Virus record (IMG/VR): IMGVR_UViG_3300044983_000082
Location: 1 to 38,465 of that record
DNA length: 38,465 nt
DNA from: a virus
Taxonomy: Duplodnaviria; Caudoviricetes
Strand: one strand, 5' to 3'
A program made the translations under genes and the position numbers. Every line of letters begins with the position of its first letter. Position 1 is the stretch's first letter. This document shows positions 11,374-35,996 of the stretch, piece by piece. The notes beneath the pieces were generated by a model. That model worked only from the letters and a program-made list of their open reading frames with translations. It was not told the origin of the DNA and did not search any database.

Positions 11374-12849
11374 CTACCGCCGCAAGGCCTCCCGCTTCCG
11401 TTGCTCGCGCGCCTCCCGCTCCTTCTCTGCCAGGCTCGCGATTCGCTCCTCGGACATCGGGACGTAGGTTTCGATCACGCCGTAGCCGAAAGCGTCGGCC
11501 GCGTGGTCTTCCTTCTGCTGGTGGTCGTCCCGGTCGTCGTTCCAGACTAGGCGCCCGAGCTCAGCCCCGAGGCACGCCGCGCCCTCGTAGACGAAGATAT
11601 GACCAATCCCGAACAGATCATTGATCGTGTGGATGCGTGGGCGCTTGTTGCCGAGCGCGTTCTTCTGCGCTGCCAGCATGGGCACGCCGAACTGACTCGC
11701 GAAGCTTTCGACGACCTGCTTGCTCGCGCCGCCGCCGCTGTCGCCTACGACAGTCCCGACGCTGTAGGTCGTGCGCAATTCCTTGATGCGCTCCGCCAGC
11801 TTGGGCAGCTTCCAGTGCTGTCGCTTTTCGGCGTAGAGAACGTGAACCCGTTCGCCGCGTACCACGCGCGTCGAGCCGTCCTCCTGCTCGTACGTCTCCT
11901 CGAAGTCGCACAGTCGTAGAACGACGATGGCCGTGTGATCTTCCCAGCCGAAGTCGACCGCCATGATCGTGCGCCCGAGCCACGGTGCGGAGCTGTCCGG
12001 GAGCAGGATGCCGGCGTAGTTGCCGTAGCACTTGAGCTCGGAGGGCAGACACCACTGGGCCAAGACCTCGCGCCGGAACCGAGAGTCGTCCCGGCTGAGA
12101 TAGAGCCGGTTCTTCAGGTCTTCCTCGATGCTGTTTTCGGCCTTGCTCTTGCCGTTCGCCTCCAGCACCTGGAAAACGGGGTTGTCGTAGATCAGGCCGA
12201 AGTGCCGGCTCGCGCCGTACATGTTCCGGCCAGTGACGGCGTCCGTCTGGGTGGTGCACTGCCACCAGAAGTCGGGCTCTGGGTCGCTCGGGTCGCCCGG
12301 GATAGGACCTGGCGTGCCGGCGAGCGTACATCCGGACCCCGGCATCCCGCGATAGCGCCGCATGGCCTCCCAGGCGCAGGAAAGGACCCCCTCCTTCAGG
12401 ACCTTCGACTTGGGGACGCCGCATTCGTCGAAGTACGCCGCGAACAGGTCCTCACCGCGCAGCTTCTGGACCTCGGCCTCGTTGGACATGCCCATGATGC
12501 GGATCGCCCCGCCGTTGGGCAGGGTGATCCGCTTGTGCATGCCGTTCCAATCCCACGCCAGCCCACAGTCGCGCTGGAGCTGGCGGAAGATCGGCAGGAG
12601 AATCTCCTCACCTCGGCTGATGGTCGGAGCGACGTAGGCCTGGACGGTCCCAGGCCTCGCGTGTTCAATCATCCGGGTCGCTAGGGCGTCCGTCTTCCCA
12701 TGTCGACGACCCGCTAGGTACGTGATCAGCGCCGCTCGGTCCCGGATGTAGGCCGTCTGGAGCGGGGTAGCTCGCTGGATCAGGCGCGGGCTGCTCGTCG
12801 CCTTCTCCTTGCGTGAGAAGAGGAATCTCTTTGCTGCTAGCGAATGCAT
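11374..12849 (-). CDS. terL: Terminase large subunit
   Basis: Walker A AGRRHGKT, LRG, Walker B AYFDEC, motif III LAGTP, nuclease MAVDFG and DHAADA. Confidence 0.93.
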   Translation of the reverse strand: MHSLAAKRFLFSRKEKATSSPRLIQRATPLQTAYIRDRAALITYLAGRRHGKTDALATRMIEHARPGTVQAYVAPTISRGEEILLPIFRQLQRDCGLAWDWNGMHKRITLPNGGAIRIMGMSNEAEVQKLRGEDLFAAYFDECGVPKSKVLKEGVLSCAWEAMRRYRGMPGSGCTLAGTPGPIPGDPSDPEPDFWWQCTTQTDAVTGRNMYGASRHFGLIYDNPVFQVLEANGKSKAENSIEEDLKNRLYLSRDDSRFRREVLAQWCLPSELKCYGNYAGILLPDSSAPWLGRTIMAVDFGWEDHTAIVVLRLCDFEETYEQEDGSTRVVRGERVHVLYAEKRQHWKLPKLAERIKELRTTYSVGTVVGDSGGGASKQVVESFASQFGVPMLAAQKNALGNKRPRIHTINDLFGIGHIFVYEGAACLGAELGRLVWNDDRDDHQQKEDHAADAFGYGVIETYVPMSEERIASLAEKEREAREQRKREALRR

Positions 12850-13270
12850 TGATCAGGTCCTCGGCGATGTCGTCGTTCGGGGCAATCTCCCAGGCGCTCT
12901 CGTTGGCCTGCTTCTCCAGCCGCTCGATGGCCCAGGCGGCCGGAAGGACGTCCTCCTCGGTCTCCTCGGTGTCGCCGCCCGGCTTGGTCACCGTCTTGCG
13001 CTTCGTGCCGCCGTTGGCCGCCGACTCGATGCGCAGCTGGTTCTCCGCCGCCTTCTCGGCCCTGATCTCGGCGATGCGCCAGGCCAGCTCGGCCGCGTAG
13101 GGGTCGGGGCAGTCGTACGTCTGGCCGAGCGCGTACCAGTAGAGCAGATCGGCCGGATAGATGTTGCACGCCTTGGCGACCTTCTTCAGGTCGTTCGGCA
13201 GCTTCTCCACCCACCGGCAGATCTGGTCTACGCGGCGCTGGGTCAGGAGACCGGAGCGTCGCCGGTTCAC
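12665..13270 (-). CDS. terS: Putative terminase small subunit
   Basis: Directly upstream of terL; HTH-like N-terminus (KKVAKACNIYPADLLYW), AAWAIER segment, disordered tail. Confidence 0.55.
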   Translation of the reverse strand: MNRRRSGLLTQRRVDQICRWVEKLPNDLKKVAKACNIYPADLLYWYALGQTYDCPDPYAAELAWRIAEIRAEKAAENQLRIESAANGGTKRKTVTKPGGDTEETEEDVLPAAWAIERLEKQANESAWEIAPNDDIAEDLINAFASSKEIPLLTQGEGDEQPAPDPASYPAPDGLHPGPSGADHVPSGSSTWEDGRPSDPDD

Positions 13271-13273
13271 GGC

Positions 13274-14005
13274 TCAGTCCTCCAGCGCGAATTGGCAGTC
13301 TTCCGAGGGCGTGAGCCGGTAGAAGATGCCGAAGCGGCGGAAGCGGCAGCTCGTGATGGGGTTCAAGCAGATCAGGTCGCCCTTGCGCTGCTTCGGCGTC
13401 CAGCGGACCGGCTTGGTGTGCACGAAAGGTTCCTCCCGGACCCCTTCCTTGCGCTCGCCCCAACGTTGCGTACCCTTGGTACGCTTGAAGGTGCCGCCGC
13501 CCGCGTCCAGGCAGCGCTCCAGCACGACCCGAACGATGCCGTCCGAGCCGCCGTCCACCGGCATGCCGTCCGACAGCATGTCCTCGGGAAGCAGGAGCCC
13601 GCCGTACATGTGGGCCTCGAACTCCTCCCGGGCTCGCTTCGTCAGCACCCAGTCATTGACCGCGCGCAGGCCTTCGTCCGGCTTGCCCAGGTTCGTGACG
13701 ACTGCAGCGATGCTGCGCATCTCGGCCAGAAGGCAGATCTCCTTCTTCAGGGCCACGACCTTCGACATGCTGAACAGCGGCAGGGCCACGATGTCGCCCG
13801 GCTTCAGCGCAGTCATGTCGGGGCAGTCGGCCGTTCCTTCACCGACGGCCACGACCTCGCCGATGCAGGTCCGGTCGTGCCGCTCGCCGGTCATGACGCC
13901 AGGCCCGATCAGGGCGCTGTCCGGAGTGATGATCGTCGAGCTGTTCCAGGCCTGCTCCAGGTCCTCGCGCGGGCGTAGCGTTACGTAGCTGTTGAACGGT
14001 CGCAT
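13274..14005 (-). CDS. Tandem double-GroES (Cpn10-Cpn10) co-chaperonin
   Basis: Domain 1 MRPFNSYV..IITPDSA..GEVVAVGEG..LKPGDIV..SIAAVV; domain 2 LRAVNDWVLTKR..GGLLLP..LDAGGG..RKGDLI..SEDCQFALE. Confidence 0.85.
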   Translation of the reverse strand: MRPFNSYVTLRPREDLEQAWNSSTIITPDSALIGPGVMTGERHDRTCIGEVVAVGEGTADCPDMTALKPGDIVALPLFSMSKVVALKKEICLLAEMRSIAAVVTNLGKPDEGLRAVNDWVLTKRAREEFEAHMYGGLLLPEDMLSDGMPVDGGSDGIVRVVLERCLDAGGGTFKRTKGTQRWGERKEGVREEPFVHTKPVRWTPKQRKGDLICLNPITSCRFRRFGIFYRLTPSEDCQFALED

Positions 14006-31655: not shown

Positions 31656-32930
31656 TTACACAGTCGCCGAGATGTGGCAGTGCTTGAACGGTGCACCCAT
31701 CACGGTCGCGATGTACGACACGGGACGGAGCTCCAGGTCGTTGGAGTTCGCCATGCGGGAAACGATGCTCCCGTCCTGGTCGACCATCTCTGCCACCGCG
31801 CCGTTAGGCGAGTGCCAGTTGATGTCGCCCTGGGCGAGGATGAAGTACCGACCGCGCGGCACCTGGGGCTCGGAGACGATCATCAGCGGGCCGTTCGCCG
31901 TCTCGCAGGTCAGGGCGGTGTAGCCGTCCTTCTGGCTGACGTCGGGGCTGCGCTGCAGCTGCGTGTGCAGCTCCTCTTCAATGCGTCCCCAGTCGGTCGG
32001 GTTCGCGTAGACGCAGTCGATCTCCGAGTTCTCGGACATGTAGCCGAGCTGCTCCCGGTGCTCGTTCACGGTGCGCTTGATGCGCGACATGCCAGAGCGG
32101 CCGGTCAGCGAGGCGTCAGCCGGGCAGAAGCCGGACAGGATCGAGTCGATGCTCCGGTCGACACCGTTCAGCGTCGAGGTCGCCACTGCCTGGGGCAGGT
32201 ACGCCTGGAGCGGGGTCATGATGTCGTTCGTCCCGGGAAGGAACTCGCCCTCTCGGAAGTAGAAGTTCGTCGCAGCCCAGTTCGCCGGCTGGCCCGCGGT
32301 GCCGCCCGAGGTCGTCGAGACGGTGACGGTGCCTGCCTTCAGGTCGCGCGAGATCACGAAGCCAGTGCCGGAGCCGGCAACCAGGACGTGAGACGAGCTG
32401 GAGCCATCGTTCGCCGAGACCACGATCTGGTCGCCGGGCACGAAGTTCGAGGCCTCCTGAGCCGTCAGGCCGGAGATCACGCCAGCCGCACAAGCGCGAG
32501 CCGCAGCAACCAGCGACGTGCCGGGGTTCGCGAACCAGACGCGGACCAGCTCCGCGCCGTGCTGCTTCAGAGCCAGGTCGGTGTCGAACTGGAGAGCGCG
32601 CGCCGCAGCGTCCTTGTCCTTGCGGGAGACCGCGATGTCCTTGTGGGGGACGCGAATCGAGCCCTCGTAGGTGCCGAAGGGCACGAGCCACTGGAGCTTG
32701 CGAGAGTTCTTCTGGTTGGCCGAGATGCCCTGCGCCGTAGCCAGGTCACCAGACGAGCCGCGGTGCCCGTAGAGGACGAACCGCTTGGACACGGCTTCGC
32801 CGCCGTTGTCCTGGAAGTTGACACGCTTGAGCCAAGGGGAACCCTTGATCGACGCGGCGTGAACGCGGTCGAGCTTCATGTACCAACGGTTCAGCCAGTT
32901 GGTCGCGAAAGAGGTCAGAGCAGCAGCCAT
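31656..32930 (-). CDS. Major capsid protein (HK97-like fold, probable insertion domain)
   Basis: 424 aa with own promoter and downstream hairpin; backbone-helix segment AAARALQFDTDLAL, LNGVDRS, YANPTDW, C-terminal P...C.I. Confidence 0.85.
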   Translation of the reverse strand: MAAALTSFATNWLNRWYMKLDRVHAASIKGSPWLKRVNFQDNGGEAVSKRFVLYGHRGSSGDLATAQGISANQKNSRKLQWLVPFGTYEGSIRVPHKDIAVSRKDKDAAARALQFDTDLALKQHGAELVRVWFANPGTSLVAAARACAAGVISGLTAQEASNFVPGDQIVVSANDGSSSSHVLVAGSGTGFVISRDLKAGTVTVSTTSGGTAGQPANWAATNFYFREGEFLPGTNDIMTPLQAYLPQAVATSTLNGVDRSIDSILSGFCPADASLTGRSGMSRIKRTVNEHREQLGYMSENSEIDCVYANPTDWGRIEEELHTQLQRSPDVSQKDGYTALTCETANGPLMIVSEPQVPRGRYFILAQGDINWHSPNGAVAEMVDQDGSIVSRMANSNDLELRPVSYIATVMGAPFKHCHISATV

Positions 32931-33171: not shown

Positions 33172-33657
33172 TTATGGCCTGGGCACCGCAGCTAAGCCCG
33201 TCTCGAAAGTTCTGAAGTCGACGCCGCCCCCACAATCGGTTCTGCGGCGCGCGACAACCCCGAAGGCACGTCGGACGCAAGCCTTGATGTCGGGGCAAGC
33301 CTCGGGGCAGCCAACGCCCAGCAACCACCCGATGCACAGGTCGCCGCCCGAGCCGATGGCCGAGAGCCCGGGAGCCTCGGACCAGACGCGCTGGTCCTGC
33401 ACTTTGAACACGTGGCCGTCTGGAGTCATCACGAGCGCCACGCTGTCCTTGTCCACGTGCTCGATCAGGTCCTCGACCAGCTGGGCGCCCTTGCGGATGG
33501 CCCTGCGGACGTCCAGCGTCGAGGTAGCGTTGCCGGCAGCGGCCGCGATCAGGTGCGGGTTCTTGGCGATCTTCACGAGCGAGCCCTTGGCCCCGTCGGC
33601 CTCGGTCACGCAGCGGTCAGCTGCCATCCAGCCTTTGCCGGCAACGATGCACGTCAT
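33172..33657 (-). CDS. HslV / proteasome beta-subunit-like Ntn-hydrolase peptidase
   Basis: M-T-CIVA (N-terminal Thr nucleophile), MAADRCVT, VKI, AAAG, AIGSGG, D..CGG; GGAGGT SD. Confidence 0.8.
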   Translation of the reverse strand: MTCIVAGKGWMAADRCVTEADGAKGSLVKIAKNPHLIAAAAGNATSTLDVRRAIRKGAQLVEDLIEHVDKDSVALVMTPDGHVFKVQDQRVWSEAPGLSAIGSGGDLCIGWLLGVGCPEACPDIKACVRRAFGVVARRRTDCGGGVDFRTFETGLAAVPRP

Positions 33658-34912: not shown

Positions 34913-34981
34913 TGGCACCCAGCCCAGGAGTCGAACCCGGCTGCTCGGCTTTTGGAGGGCCAGCAGGCGCCTGCACCGGAT
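34913..34981 (-). tRNA. Atypical tRNA-Trp(CCA), 69 nt, D-arm reduced
   Basis: Acceptor ATCCGGT/GCTGGGT, loop CTCCAAA, T-arm CCGGG-TTCGACT-CCTGG, G73, encoded CCA; only 12 nt in the D region. Confidence 0.7.
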
Positions 34982-34984
34982 AGT

Positions 34985-35060
34985 TGGTCGTCCCGGGCGG
35001 GCTCGAACCGCCGACCTGGCGCATATCAGGCGCCTGCTCTACCGACTGAGCTACGGGACA
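34985..35060 (-). tRNA. tRNA-Ile(GAT)
   Basis: 76-nt cloverleaf; GGCGC-CTGATAT-GCGCC, GGCGG-TTCGAGC-CCGCC, A73, CCA. Confidence 0.95.
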
Positions 35061-35064
35061 GAGG

Positions 35065-35126
35065 GGGTTGCGGTGCCGGGAGTGTGTGCCCGATCTTACG
35101 AGTGGCTCGCTTGCCACTACACCGCG
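35065..35126 (-). ncRNA. Anticodon-less tRNA-like element
   Basis: CGCGGTG/CACCGCA-A-CCC acceptor-like stem, AGTGGC/GCCACT hairpin, TCGGG/CCCGG arm. Confidence 0.45.
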
Positions 35127-35134
35127 CCTTCGAT

Positions 35135-35210
35135 TGGCTGCAGGGGCAGGGCTCGAACCTGCCACCCTCACGTTAACAGCGTGCCGCTCTACCGACTGAG
35201 CTACCCTGCA
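35135..35210 (-). tRNA. tRNA-Asn(GTT)
   Basis: 76-nt cloverleaf; loop CTGTTAA, U1-A72, G73, CCA. Confidence 0.95.
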
Positions 35211-35215
35211 ATGAT

Positions 35216-35289
35216 TGGTTCGGTCTCCTCGACTTGAACGAGGATTGGCGGGTTCAGAGCCCGGTGTCCTACCATTGGACGAAGACCGA
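35216..35289 (-). tRNA. tRNA-Gln(CTG)
   Basis: 74-nt cloverleaf; loop CTCTGAA, U1-A72, T-arm CCTCG-TTCAAGT-CGAGG, CCA. Confidence 0.92.
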
Positions 35290-35294
35290 GTGAT

Positions 35295-35437
35295 TAGGGC
35301 GCCCGCTCCGGCAGGCCTCGGCTGCTTGGTGCTCCCTGACCGGTCGAGCTGGCAGTACGCCACCAGCGCGCAGGGAGGCGATGCATGCTGTGCATCTGCC
35401 GGAGCGAACTCGGCGCCGTTTTGCAGGCGGCGCCTAG
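35295..35437 (-). ncRNA. ~140-nt multi-helix RNA with SRP helix-8-like motif
   Basis: 11-bp CGCTCCGGCAG/CTGCCGGAGCG stem, several internal hairpins, ACC-GGTCAGG-N7-AAGCAGCC-GAGGC; fills the gap between two tRNAs. Confidence 0.6.
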
Positions 35438-35440
35438 AGT

Positions 35441-35533
35441 TGGGGGCACACGACGGGATTTGAACCCGTGAGCCGGGTGTACCGGCTGGCAGACTCACAT
35501 TCTGCTGACATAAGCCGCTCGTCCACATGGCCC
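35441..35533 (-). tRNA. Atypical class II tRNA with His anticodon (GTG), 93 nt
   Basis: G-1:C73, GCAGA-ATGTGAG-TCTGC, variable arm AGCCGG-TACAC-CCGGCT, ACGGG-TTCAAAT-CCCGT, CCA; one bulged T in acceptor. Confidence 0.8.
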
Positions 35534-35566
35534 ATAACCTTGAAAGTGTTGGTTTTTTAGGTGGTT

Positions 35567-35593
35567 TGCCAACGACCACTCGGCCATACCCGT
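35567..35593 (-). pseudogene. 5' fragment of a Ser/Leu-type tRNA
   Basis: ACGGGTA-TG-GCC-GAGTGGTCGTT-GGC-A D-arm with no anticodon stem or T-arm downstream. Confidence 0.45.
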
Positions 35594-35603
35594 GCCTTAC
35601 AGG

Positions 35604-35670
35604 AAGCGGAATCAGGACTCGAACCCGACAGCCCTGGCTTATGAGGCCCGGCCGGCGCCATGCACCCGCT
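35604..35670 (-). tRNA. Atypical tRNA with CAT anticodon (Met or Ile2), D-arm reduced, followed by CCT
   Basis: Acceptor AGCGGGT/TTCCGCT, loop CTCATAA, T-arm TCGGG-TTCGAGT-CCTGA; 13 nt in the D region. Confidence 0.65.
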
Positions 35671-35724: not shown

Positions 35725-35753
35725 AGTATAGCCTAGGCAACGACGGGTTGCCA
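35725..35753 (-). promoter_or_regulatory. Promoter TGGCAA-N17-TATACT for the tRNA/ncRNA cluster
   Basis: - strand reads TGGCAA cccgtcgttgcctaggc TATACT, about 55 nt upstream of the first tRNA. Confidence 0.7.
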
Positions 35754-35996
35754 ACCCTTTTCGACATCGGTGCACCAACTCGCAGTCTTGGGTGCACGTC
35801 GGTCCAGCTCGTCTCGTGCAGCCCAGGCCTGGTAGCTCTGCCAGTCGGCCTGGCTCCGGCCTTCGGCTACGCCTCGCAGCTCGTGATGCTTCAGCCCGAG
35901 GAGCTTGGGGTCCCAGCGATAGGGCGCGAGCAGGATCAGGTTGCCGCGGGCGTCGAGCTTGCGCGGGATAGCGTTCAGCCGTTCGTAGCTTCTCAT
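35733..35996 (-). CDS. Hypothetical protein, 87 aa
   Basis: AGGAGA SD, ATG 35996 (MRSYERLNAIPRKLD...). Confidence 0.7.
   Translation of the reverse strand: MRSYERLNAIPRKLDARGNLILLAPYRWDPKLLGLKHHELRGVAEGRSQADWQSYQAWAARDELDRRAPKTASWCTDVEKGWQPVVA

Follow-up and report, generated by a model that had tools for sequence, protein, structure and literature searches.

We analysed a virus record of 38,465 bases from a soil phage (IMG/VR record IMGVR_UViG_3300044983_000082; Caudoviricetes), taken whole and called the window below, which has a G+C content of ~65% and carries on its minus strand an array of six tRNA genes between a primase-like gene and an endolysin gene. At default settings ARAGORN calls only the His, Gln, Asn and Ile genes of this array, three of which also reach the Rfam gathering score; the tRNA-His(GUG), at 27.5 bits, falls under the cut-off. 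The subject of this report is the remaining two genes, the first and last of the array, which have a CAU and a CCA anticodon (hereafter the CAU and Trp genes). These compact genes have no Rfam (RF00005) match even at E up to 10, and ARAGORN calls them only at a lowered threshold or in its mitochondrial mode. Comparison with homologues argues that they represent a real, selected and widespread variant of tRNA architecture, present here in its most reduced form and on two anticodons, and that they are likely to function.

The two genes are built on one scaffold. A sequence-only reading of this DNA had pointed to the shared motif GGTGCA(T)GGCGCC, and the window indeed has two copies of it and no more (second-order Markov simulations averaged 0.04 copies, with two in 0/100). 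That reading placed the whole motif after the acceptor 5' strand. The hairpin with its GG does follow the acceptor, but the leading GGT forms positions 5-7, the last of the acceptor 5' strand, and the mini-hairpin thus joins the acceptor stem with a linker of 0 nucleotides (nt). In standard numbering, positions 8-14 (U8, the 5' D-strand and A14) are absent and spacing is normal from G18 to the 3' end; the distance from acceptor to anticodon loop is 17-18 nt versus 23-26 in normal tRNAs. Neither gene has the canonical U8, A14, D-stem of 3-4 base pairs (bp; 10-13 with 22-25) or 4-5-nt variable loop. G18-G19 is retained in a loop of 4 nt (Trp) or 5 nt (CAU), and the 3' D-strand (23-27), left without its partner, forms pairs with the variable region (44-48), so that the anticodon helix reaches ~9 bp. 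The pairing-preserving substitutions claimed for this extension are there: CTGCT/AGCAG in the Trp gene and CGGCC/GGCTG in the CAU gene each form 5/5 pairs, of which two differ on both sides between the genes. The T-arms are near-identical, as had also been claimed (14/17 positions, with 47/69 identical overall). Acceptor pairs number 7/7 in the Trp gene and 6/7 in the CAU gene, and both genes have a 5/5 T-stem, a TPsiC loop and a 7-nt anticodon loop with U33 and a purine at 37. The Trp gene has A1-U72, U2.G71, C3-G70, C4-G69, G73, an encoded CCA and a C31.A39 mismatch. The CAU gene has A1-U72, G2-C71, C3-G70 and G4-C69, mismatches at U7.U66 and G28.A42, and a 3' end of U73-CCU, so that CCA has to be added post-transcriptionally.

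Table 1. Features of the tRNA array and of its surroundings, in window positions.
Feature	Position	Strand	Remarks
Putative sigma-70-type promoter	35725..35754	-	10/12 match upstream of the array; 1 found vs 0.2 expected in shuffles
Compact tRNA, CAU anticodon	35601..35670	-	70 nt; first tRNA of the array; anticodon 35643-35641
CAU mini D hairpin	35655..35663	-	2 pairs (15-22, 16-21); 5-nt loop with G18-G19
CAU extended anticodon helix	35629..35654	-	23-27 (35654-35650) with 44-48 (35633-35629); G43 bulged; no free variable loop
tRNA-His(GUG)	35441..35533	-	93 nt; G-1:C73; long variable arm; one acceptor bulge
Structured non-tRNA RNA between His and Gln	35295..35410	-	Long closing stem with two-sided changes in the 95% relative, enclosing several hairpins; no Rfam match
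Canonical tRNA-Gln(CUG)	35216..35289	-	
Canonical tRNA-Asn(GUU)	35135..35210	-	
Small RNA-like element between Asn and Ile	35066..35125	-	7-bp closing stem, two hairpins; no anticodon or TPsiC loop; one base differs in the 95% relative
Canonical tRNA-Ile(GAU)	34985..35060	-	3 nt upstream of the compact Trp gene
Compact tRNA, CCA anticodon (Trp)	34913..34981	-	69 nt; last tRNA of the array; anticodon 34955-34953
Trp mini D hairpin	34967..34974	-	2 pairs; 4-nt loop with G18-G19
Trp extended anticodon helix	34941..34966	-	23-27 (34966-34962) with 44-48 (34945-34941)
HslV-family peptidase gene	33172..33657	-	
Probable capsid protein gene	31656..32930		424 amino acids; used to gather relatives
GroES-like protein gene	13274..14005	-	

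Both genes are conserved in relatives of the phage. Relatives were gathered through the gene that, from its position and size, probably encodes the capsid protein (it has no family match); it gave 73 homologues, around which 25 loci were fetched. A 95% relative (L121) carries both compact genes, and so does the more distant L130, with 68% capsid-protein identity and flanks that do not align. The putative array promoter is identical in the 95%-identical relative. Between the window and L130 the CAU genes are identical at 60/70 positions, and 6/6 changed pairs are kept; the Trp genes are identical at 48/69 positions and 7/9 changed pairs are kept, six of them by two-sided changes. Of the five extension-helix pairs in the Trp gene, four differ on both sides in L130 and still pair. 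Other relatives have other CAU genes: ordinary in L131, and in L122, L123 and L134 with a closed D-arm plus a short variable arm. The latter tRNAs (L122 7301-7387, L123 240-329, L134 7781-7868) have U1-A72, U73, a 5-bp D-stem and C38 and appear to be a second non-canonical Met design. No compact gene was seen in L128 and L145, which reach the array wholly or partly, and most of the remaining fetched loci end before the array region. Variable-arm tRNA-His genes like that of the window recur in two related phages (L130 7661-7748 and L132 2285-2374).

The pairings are likewise maintained in unrelated homologues. In an alignment (A4) of 19 distinct no-linker sequences, 89.9% of cells are paired under the whole model, against 34-48% in slid controls; 21/23 pairs show two-sided changes, and these are seen in all four helices, the 5' acceptor strand included. 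The seven non-canonical pairs taken alone are 82.7% paired with 42 two-sided cells (0/500 shuffles as high; slid controls 32-48%), and the number of these pairs with a two-sided change is not above shuffles (6 vs 5.6). After thinning to 15 sequences of <80% identity, the extension pairs stand at 59/75 vs 33 in strand swaps (0/5000). A second class, with a 2-nt linker, is 93.4% paired (9 sequences). Compensatory change in the L130 orthologues and in unrelated homologues thus upholds the view, already put forward from the window's letters, that these genes are a selected design and not products of decay.

A CAU scan in which the acceptor had to be fMet-like (GCGG) and the hairpin was unconstrained gave at least 95 distinct cores, of which 18/95 were dropped for weak acceptor, T or anticodon stems and 77 were tRNA-like, 55 of them short. 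The outer hairpin pair 15-22 is Watson-Crick in 39 of the 55 short cores listed (22 expected, 0/5000) and occurs as four pair types in alignment A4. The earlier proposal of a 2-bp mini D-hairpin that keeps the GG therefore survives for the outer pair and the GG, and is unconfirmed for the inner pair where the search did not impose it; the most fitting description, from these comparisons, is a GG loop with one or two closing pairs. Among the 77 CAU tRNAs listed, a D-stem declining from ~4 to 1-2 pairs goes with an extension lengthening from ~1 to 4 (Spearman -0.58), which suggests a graded series from the ordinary form through a form like the pyrrolysine tRNA (tRNA-Pyl) to the extreme form of the window. 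A tree of the 19 sequences neither supports nor rejects a common origin of the compact CAU and CCA genes.

Searches for homologues, for which the sequence-only reading had proposed a covariance model, found members in dozens of viral contigs and in actinobacterial tRNA arrays, with covariation in the new helix. A first, loose pattern scan found the fold, among 120 loci listed, only in the 95%-identical relative (L018/L019), and the four loci of another were the same relative twice and two chance matches. From the first scan, tRNA-like matches at 18-31 bits (the L017 group, L057/L109, L051 and L079) were set aside; L017, L046, L068, L107, L113, L114, L057, L109, L051 and L079 have an acceptor and T-arm around an irregular middle and lie outside the compact class. 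A pattern with a CAU/CCA-type loop gave 11 viral loci (10 tRNA-like, one chance); a genome collection gave 16 matches, of which three were real, all actinobacterial, and 13 chance; a plasmid search gave no match. Two anticodon-free patterns returned 135 loci with 103 distinct cores, 78 of them tRNA-like; 25 were dropped for weak acceptor, T or anticodon stems, among them L314, a likely member with a 3/5 T-stem that was included in alignment A4. The linker from acceptor to hairpin in the 78 cores is 0-4 nt in 28, 5 nt in 2 and at least 6 nt (normal) in 48. A CAU or CCA anticodon is found in 22/28 short cores vs 11/48 normal ones (Fisher p 3e-6), a count that keeps a few short-class calls with TCT, TGT, GTT and CCT that may be mis-assigned ordinary tRNAs, and 23-27/44-48 pairing is higher in the short class (p 1.4e-4).

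With the covariance model the compact CAU gene, itself in the training set, scores 69.8 bits. A 15-sequence model found members beyond its training set: MW202803.1, at 67.6 bits, and a prophage that has two Lys(UUU) copies. The latter are tandem compact tRNA-like genes at the prophage end (L189 576-716, minus strand), behind a strong promoter match and adjoining the apparent 3' part of the host tRNA-Lys attachment site. BLAST of both genes against cultured phages gave partial matches only; the first four checked contained one true member (MW202803.1) and six later ones two or three looser compact forms. Cultured phages with relatives are Limnohabitans phage DC31, Streptomyces phage WRightOn (Trp) and Bacillus phage BSP36 (Met). 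In DC31 (L464 278-348; PQ492658.1, record positions 12798-12868) an unannotated compact CAU tRNA with A1-U72, U73 and CCA lies between annotated Pro and Tyr genes. A 302-kilobase (kb) phage contig carries a compact tRNA with an amber (CUA) anticodon and an encoded CCA (L316 994-1062, plus strand), a possible stop-codon suppressor. Model sweeps of genomes found members in 1/151, 3/101 and 3/151, and elsewhere 3 true members among 4 matches in 38, all lower bounds since the sweeps scored 32-134 candidates per genome; in one sweep 11/151 genomes passed E 1e-10, about half with ordinary tRNAs. Annotation tools see little of the class: Rfam matched 0/16 compact genes in 14 loci, and of the 55 short CAU genes among the matches listed ARAGORN at default settings called 18. 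Inventories of phage and array tRNAs are thus incomplete precisely for Met and Trp.

In actinobacterial arrays the compact CAU gene occupies a fixed slot before Arg(CCG) (L152, L338, L339, L467), and in L467 it is the sole CAU gene among 17 tRNAs in 3 kb. These copies have C1-G72 and look like elongator Met tRNAs. An rtcB gene lies upstream of the array in L338 and a TROVE gene downstream in L339, with a similar start in L467; the TROVE gene is preceded by a T-arm-bearing RNA, maybe Y-RNA-like, without an Rfam match in L339. Long tRNA arrays in Anabaena have been reported to be induced by translational stress and mostly charged (PMC8421152). Genomes of Cellulomonas type (L160, L153, L335, L336) carry a conserved cassette made up of a short leader open reading frame (ORF), a hairpin, the compact CAU tRNA, a small ORF and a next ORF that is putatively HNH nuclease-like by motifs alone. 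Among the neighbours of 30 loci (52 ORFs scanned) there is no shared partner gene, so host enzymes must serve the compact tRNAs. The window itself encodes a terminase, a family-A DNA polymerase, a helicase, an endolysin and a primase-like AAA protein; neither an integrase nor an aminoacyl-tRNA synthetase was found among its 35 ORFs (PHROGs and Pfam scans).

We also looked for transcripts. Both of the longest close pieces (134 and 92 nt) that one soil metatranscriptome gave across 20 kb fall in the array, and one of them covers the CAU gene's 5' half; being depth-3 contigs, possibly DNA-derived, they were not counted as support. In runs X2 and X3, a contig from a foreign organism (depth 167 in X2) matches the CAU core at 35615-35652 with 5 differences, hinting at a member of the compact class in an abundant soil organism.

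The sequence features of both genes bear on their amino-acid identity. The Trp gene has the CCA anticodon, G73 and A1-U72 of bacterial tRNA-Trp. Methionyl-tRNA synthetase (MetRS) is reported to read chiefly the anticodon, and Met and Trp identity to lie in the anticodon and discriminator (PMC9976931); the CAU/CCA bias of the short cores falls on just these two systems. The CAU RNA is probably an initiator-type tRNA. Its anticodon stem has G29-C41, G30-C40 and C31-G39, and G30-C40 is the pair described as essential in E. coli initiator tRNA (PMC5389676). Among the 55 short CAU genes listed, 1:72 is not G-C in 54, G30-C40 is present in 52, all three G-C pairs in 3, and CCA is encoded in 42. In the same set 1:72 is paired in 9/9 genes with U73 vs 15/46 with A73 (p 2e-4). 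A pyrimidine at 73 loosens the first acceptor pair and aids formylation, and selection for a loose acceptor end that favours formylation would be expected to give this pairing of 1:72 with U73. The phage has a single AUA among 9674 codons, so a role as an Ile tRNA is unlikely for the CAU gene.

A number of observations weigh against regarding the two genes as working tRNAs of a conserved fold. Against 200 shuffles neither shows better folding (z 0.62 and 0.50), whereas in the same test the array's Ile and Gln genes score -1.85 and -1.90, and single-sequence pair probability is ~0.01 for the 2-bp hairpin and ~0.06 for the Trp T-arm. The fold therefore rests on homologue comparison and not on energy. 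Within that comparison, the inner hairpin pair 16-21 was imposed by most search patterns, and in the unforced set it is at chance (18/55 vs 17.3 among the matches listed). The homologue counts are of sequences, some closely related, and not of independent lineages, and the 55 short CAU genes come from a scan that itself demanded an fMet-like acceptor. Identity elements are also incomplete. The Trp gene is without G2-C71, G3-C70 and G4-C69, reported as determinants of B. subtilis tRNA-Trp (PMC9976931), and its L130 orthologue has two U.U acceptor mismatches and ends in CCU. The CAU gene lacks an encoded CCA, the three initiator G-C pairs (29-31/39-41) and R11:Y24, position 11 being absent. Lastly, some Cellulomonas copies are damaged, L336 having no anticodon loop.

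Based on the comparative evidence as a whole, we propose, with a probability of roughly 0.7, that the compact genes are conserved, selected tRNA genes and likely working Met and Trp tRNAs of reshaped form, which would be processed and charged by the host and used during infection. Sequence and covariation show that positions 8-14 are absent, that G18-G19 sits in a tiny loop and that 23-27 pairs with 44-48, so that a plain helix takes the place of the D-stem and base triples. The mini-hairpin would stack on the extended helix, giving ~11 stacked pairs and an anticodon branch of near normal length, and G18-G19 would still lock the T-loop, so that the L-shape is retained. The array would be transcribed from the putative upstream promoter and cut by host RNase P and 3' nucleases, and a host enzyme would add CCA to the CAU RNA. 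Charging by host MetRS and tryptophanyl-tRNA synthetase (TrpRS) may be expected because both read mainly the anticodon (and G73 for Trp), not the D-arm. The least certain step is the reason for the reshaping. We give about even odds to evasion of host nucleases or toxins specific for the usual shape of tRNA-Met and tRNA-Trp. One phage family has three cores for one anticodon (compact, with a long variable arm, and ordinary) with anticodon and acceptor constant, which fits a pressure on shape. Two further points agree with this: the three G-C pairs are lost, and phage tRNAs are reported to resist nucleases by way of changes in stems or the anticodon arm (PMC10264068, PMC12445682).

The alternative that survives best, though we consider it unlikely, is that the genes encode stable non-decoding tRNA mimics, decoys that bind and sequester a host anticodon nuclease, toxin or synthetase which targets tRNA-fMet and tRNA-Trp. 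A decoy would suit the weak folding of both genes, the several homologues that stand alone between protein genes (L165, L169, L171, L172) and the absence of U8, A14 and the D-stem, which the ribosome contacts, and irregular tRNAs that are charged yet non-decoding have been described (PMC5389517). A decoy, however, would retain and not alter the shape read by the nuclease. Moreover, the acceptor, discriminator, CCA end (in 42/55 of the genes listed), T-arm, U33 and R37 have all been preserved and fit the anticodon, and the compact gene occupies the Met slot in otherwise ordinary arrays.

Decidedly less probable is a role mainly as tRNA-shaped processing signals, at which RNase P and RNase Z would mature neighbouring RNAs or mRNAs, with the anticodon a relic. 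RNase P requires the acceptor and T-arm only, the compact genes are the first and last tRNAs of the window array, and lone copies lie inside operons. Cutting, however, needs neither the conserved 7-nt loop with U33 and purine 37, nor the strong CAU/CCA bias, nor a covarying helix on the anticodon side, and in L130 and the bacterial arrays the compact genes lie inside the array.

We think it very improbable that the CAU tRNA reads AUA as a lysidine-modified tRNA-Ile2 and that the tRNA of the Trp gene reads through UGA. The CAU C34 is ambiguous on sequence, the Trp gene has an open 27:43, and a link has been described between unpinned anticodon stems and UGA reading (PMC13092985). TAA also terminates 15 of the 25 main window ORFs (TGA 7, TAG 3) despite the 65% G+C. 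The near absence of AUA codons and the fMet-like acceptor of the CAU gene speak against the first part; as to the second, in six related phage loci compared, no in-frame stop faces Trp in a real gene, and the two cases found lie in an antisense frame. Equally improbable, and by the covariation tests largely refuted, is that the genes are decaying pseudogenes or attachment-site remnants of ordinary tRNAs with chance extra pairing, a view that could draw on their being missed by Rfam and default ARAGORN, on mismatches, copies without CCA and one damaged copy (L336), and on a normal spacing 3' of G18 as in a duplicated 3' tRNA end, but that is at odds with two-sided covariation in all four helices (5' acceptor strand included), conservation of the genes at 68% capsid identity, the same length classes across dozens of unrelated contigs and the lack of an integrase among the 35 window ORFs.

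If the compact genes do encode working tRNAs, wider consequences would follow. U8, A14 and the D-stem are regarded as near-universal in tRNAs used on bacterial ribosomes. The known exceptions, tRNA-Pyl and mitochondrial tRNAs, have dedicated enzymes or machinery; the compact genes have no dedicated enzyme yet keep the elbow contacts. We tentatively suggest, at somewhat less than even odds, that a widespread, unannotated natural class of tRNAs lacking U8, A14 and the D-stem is functional on bacterial ribosomes, that phages shift Met and Trp onto this scaffold to evade tRNA-targeting defences, and hence that phage tRNA sets are undercounted and the "invariant" bacterial core is dispensable. Such tRNAs would show which core contacts are needed by MetRS, TrpRS, EF-Tu or IF2 and the ribosome. 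The class also offers a clean test of phage tRNA reshaping against host tRNA nucleases, and a natural small scaffold for tRNA engineering.

A full-text search, with most subscription journals outside its coverage, found no description of the compact fold in phages or bacteria. The sequence-only reading had likened the genes to the D-armless tRNAs of animal mitochondria. The normal D-stem is indeed gone, but G18-G19 and a closing pair are kept, so that the genes are D-reduced, and their nearest architectures appear to be Methanomethylophilus alvus tRNA-Pyl and mitochondrial tRNA-Ser(UCN), without their being members of either. The M. alvus tRNA-Pyl as described (PMC7609411, PMC6337575) and the compact genes alike have no linker between acceptor and D-arm, a 4-nt D-loop (5 in the CAU gene), a long, bulged anticodon stem and a small variable region. 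That tRNA has a 6-bp anticodon stem, a 3-nt variable loop, a CUA anticodon and pylS, whereas the compact genes have ~9 bp, no variable loop, CAU or CCA, a D hairpin of only 2 bp and no dedicated synthetase encoded nearby. They also keep the G18-G19 and TPsiC described as absent in tRNA-Pyl of Methanosarcina and Desulfitobacterium (PMC7609411, PMC6337575). With mammalian mitochondrial tRNA-Ser(UCN) of type I they share a small D-loop, a longer anticodon stem, a short variable region, G18-G19 and TPsiC, and that tRNA is described as differing in its real D-stem, 1-nt linker, 6-bp stem, 3-nt variable loop and mitochondrial system (PMC7609411). The compact tRNAs, by contrast, would have to use bacterial ribosomes and synthetases. 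Likeness to the D-armless type III mitochondrial tRNA-Ser(AGY) is limited to short length and the lack of a normal D-stem (PMC7609411); the compact genes keep a GG loop with a covarying closing pair, a canonical T-arm and a 7/5 acceptor branch.

Among bacterial tRNAs, the CAU gene shares with initiator tRNA-fMet G2-C71, C3-G70, G4-C69, a weak 1:72, CAU and G30-C40 (PMC5389676), and differs from it in the rewired core, the inverted third G-C pair (C31-G39), the lack of R11:Y24 and U73. The allo-tRNAs and irregular polycistronic tRNAs reported from soil bacteria and phages are likewise non-canonical, some allo-tRNAs lacking nucleotides 9-11 (PMC5389517). Allo-tRNAs, however, are described with 8/4 or 9/3 branches, long variable arms and Ser or Ala identity (PMC5389517), whereas the compact genes have a 7/5 branch and no variable arm. 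In a final example, the engineered ZtRNA, reported as active in E. coli, combines a non-canonical Pyl-type core with standard D-loop/T-loop pairs as the compact genes do (PMC6337575). It is artificial and has a 4-bp D-stem and a 3-nt variable region (PMC6337575); engineered Pyl-scaffold tRNAs with GG and TPsiC restored are reported to translate in E. coli (PMC6337575), and the natural compact genes are more reduced than ZtRNA.

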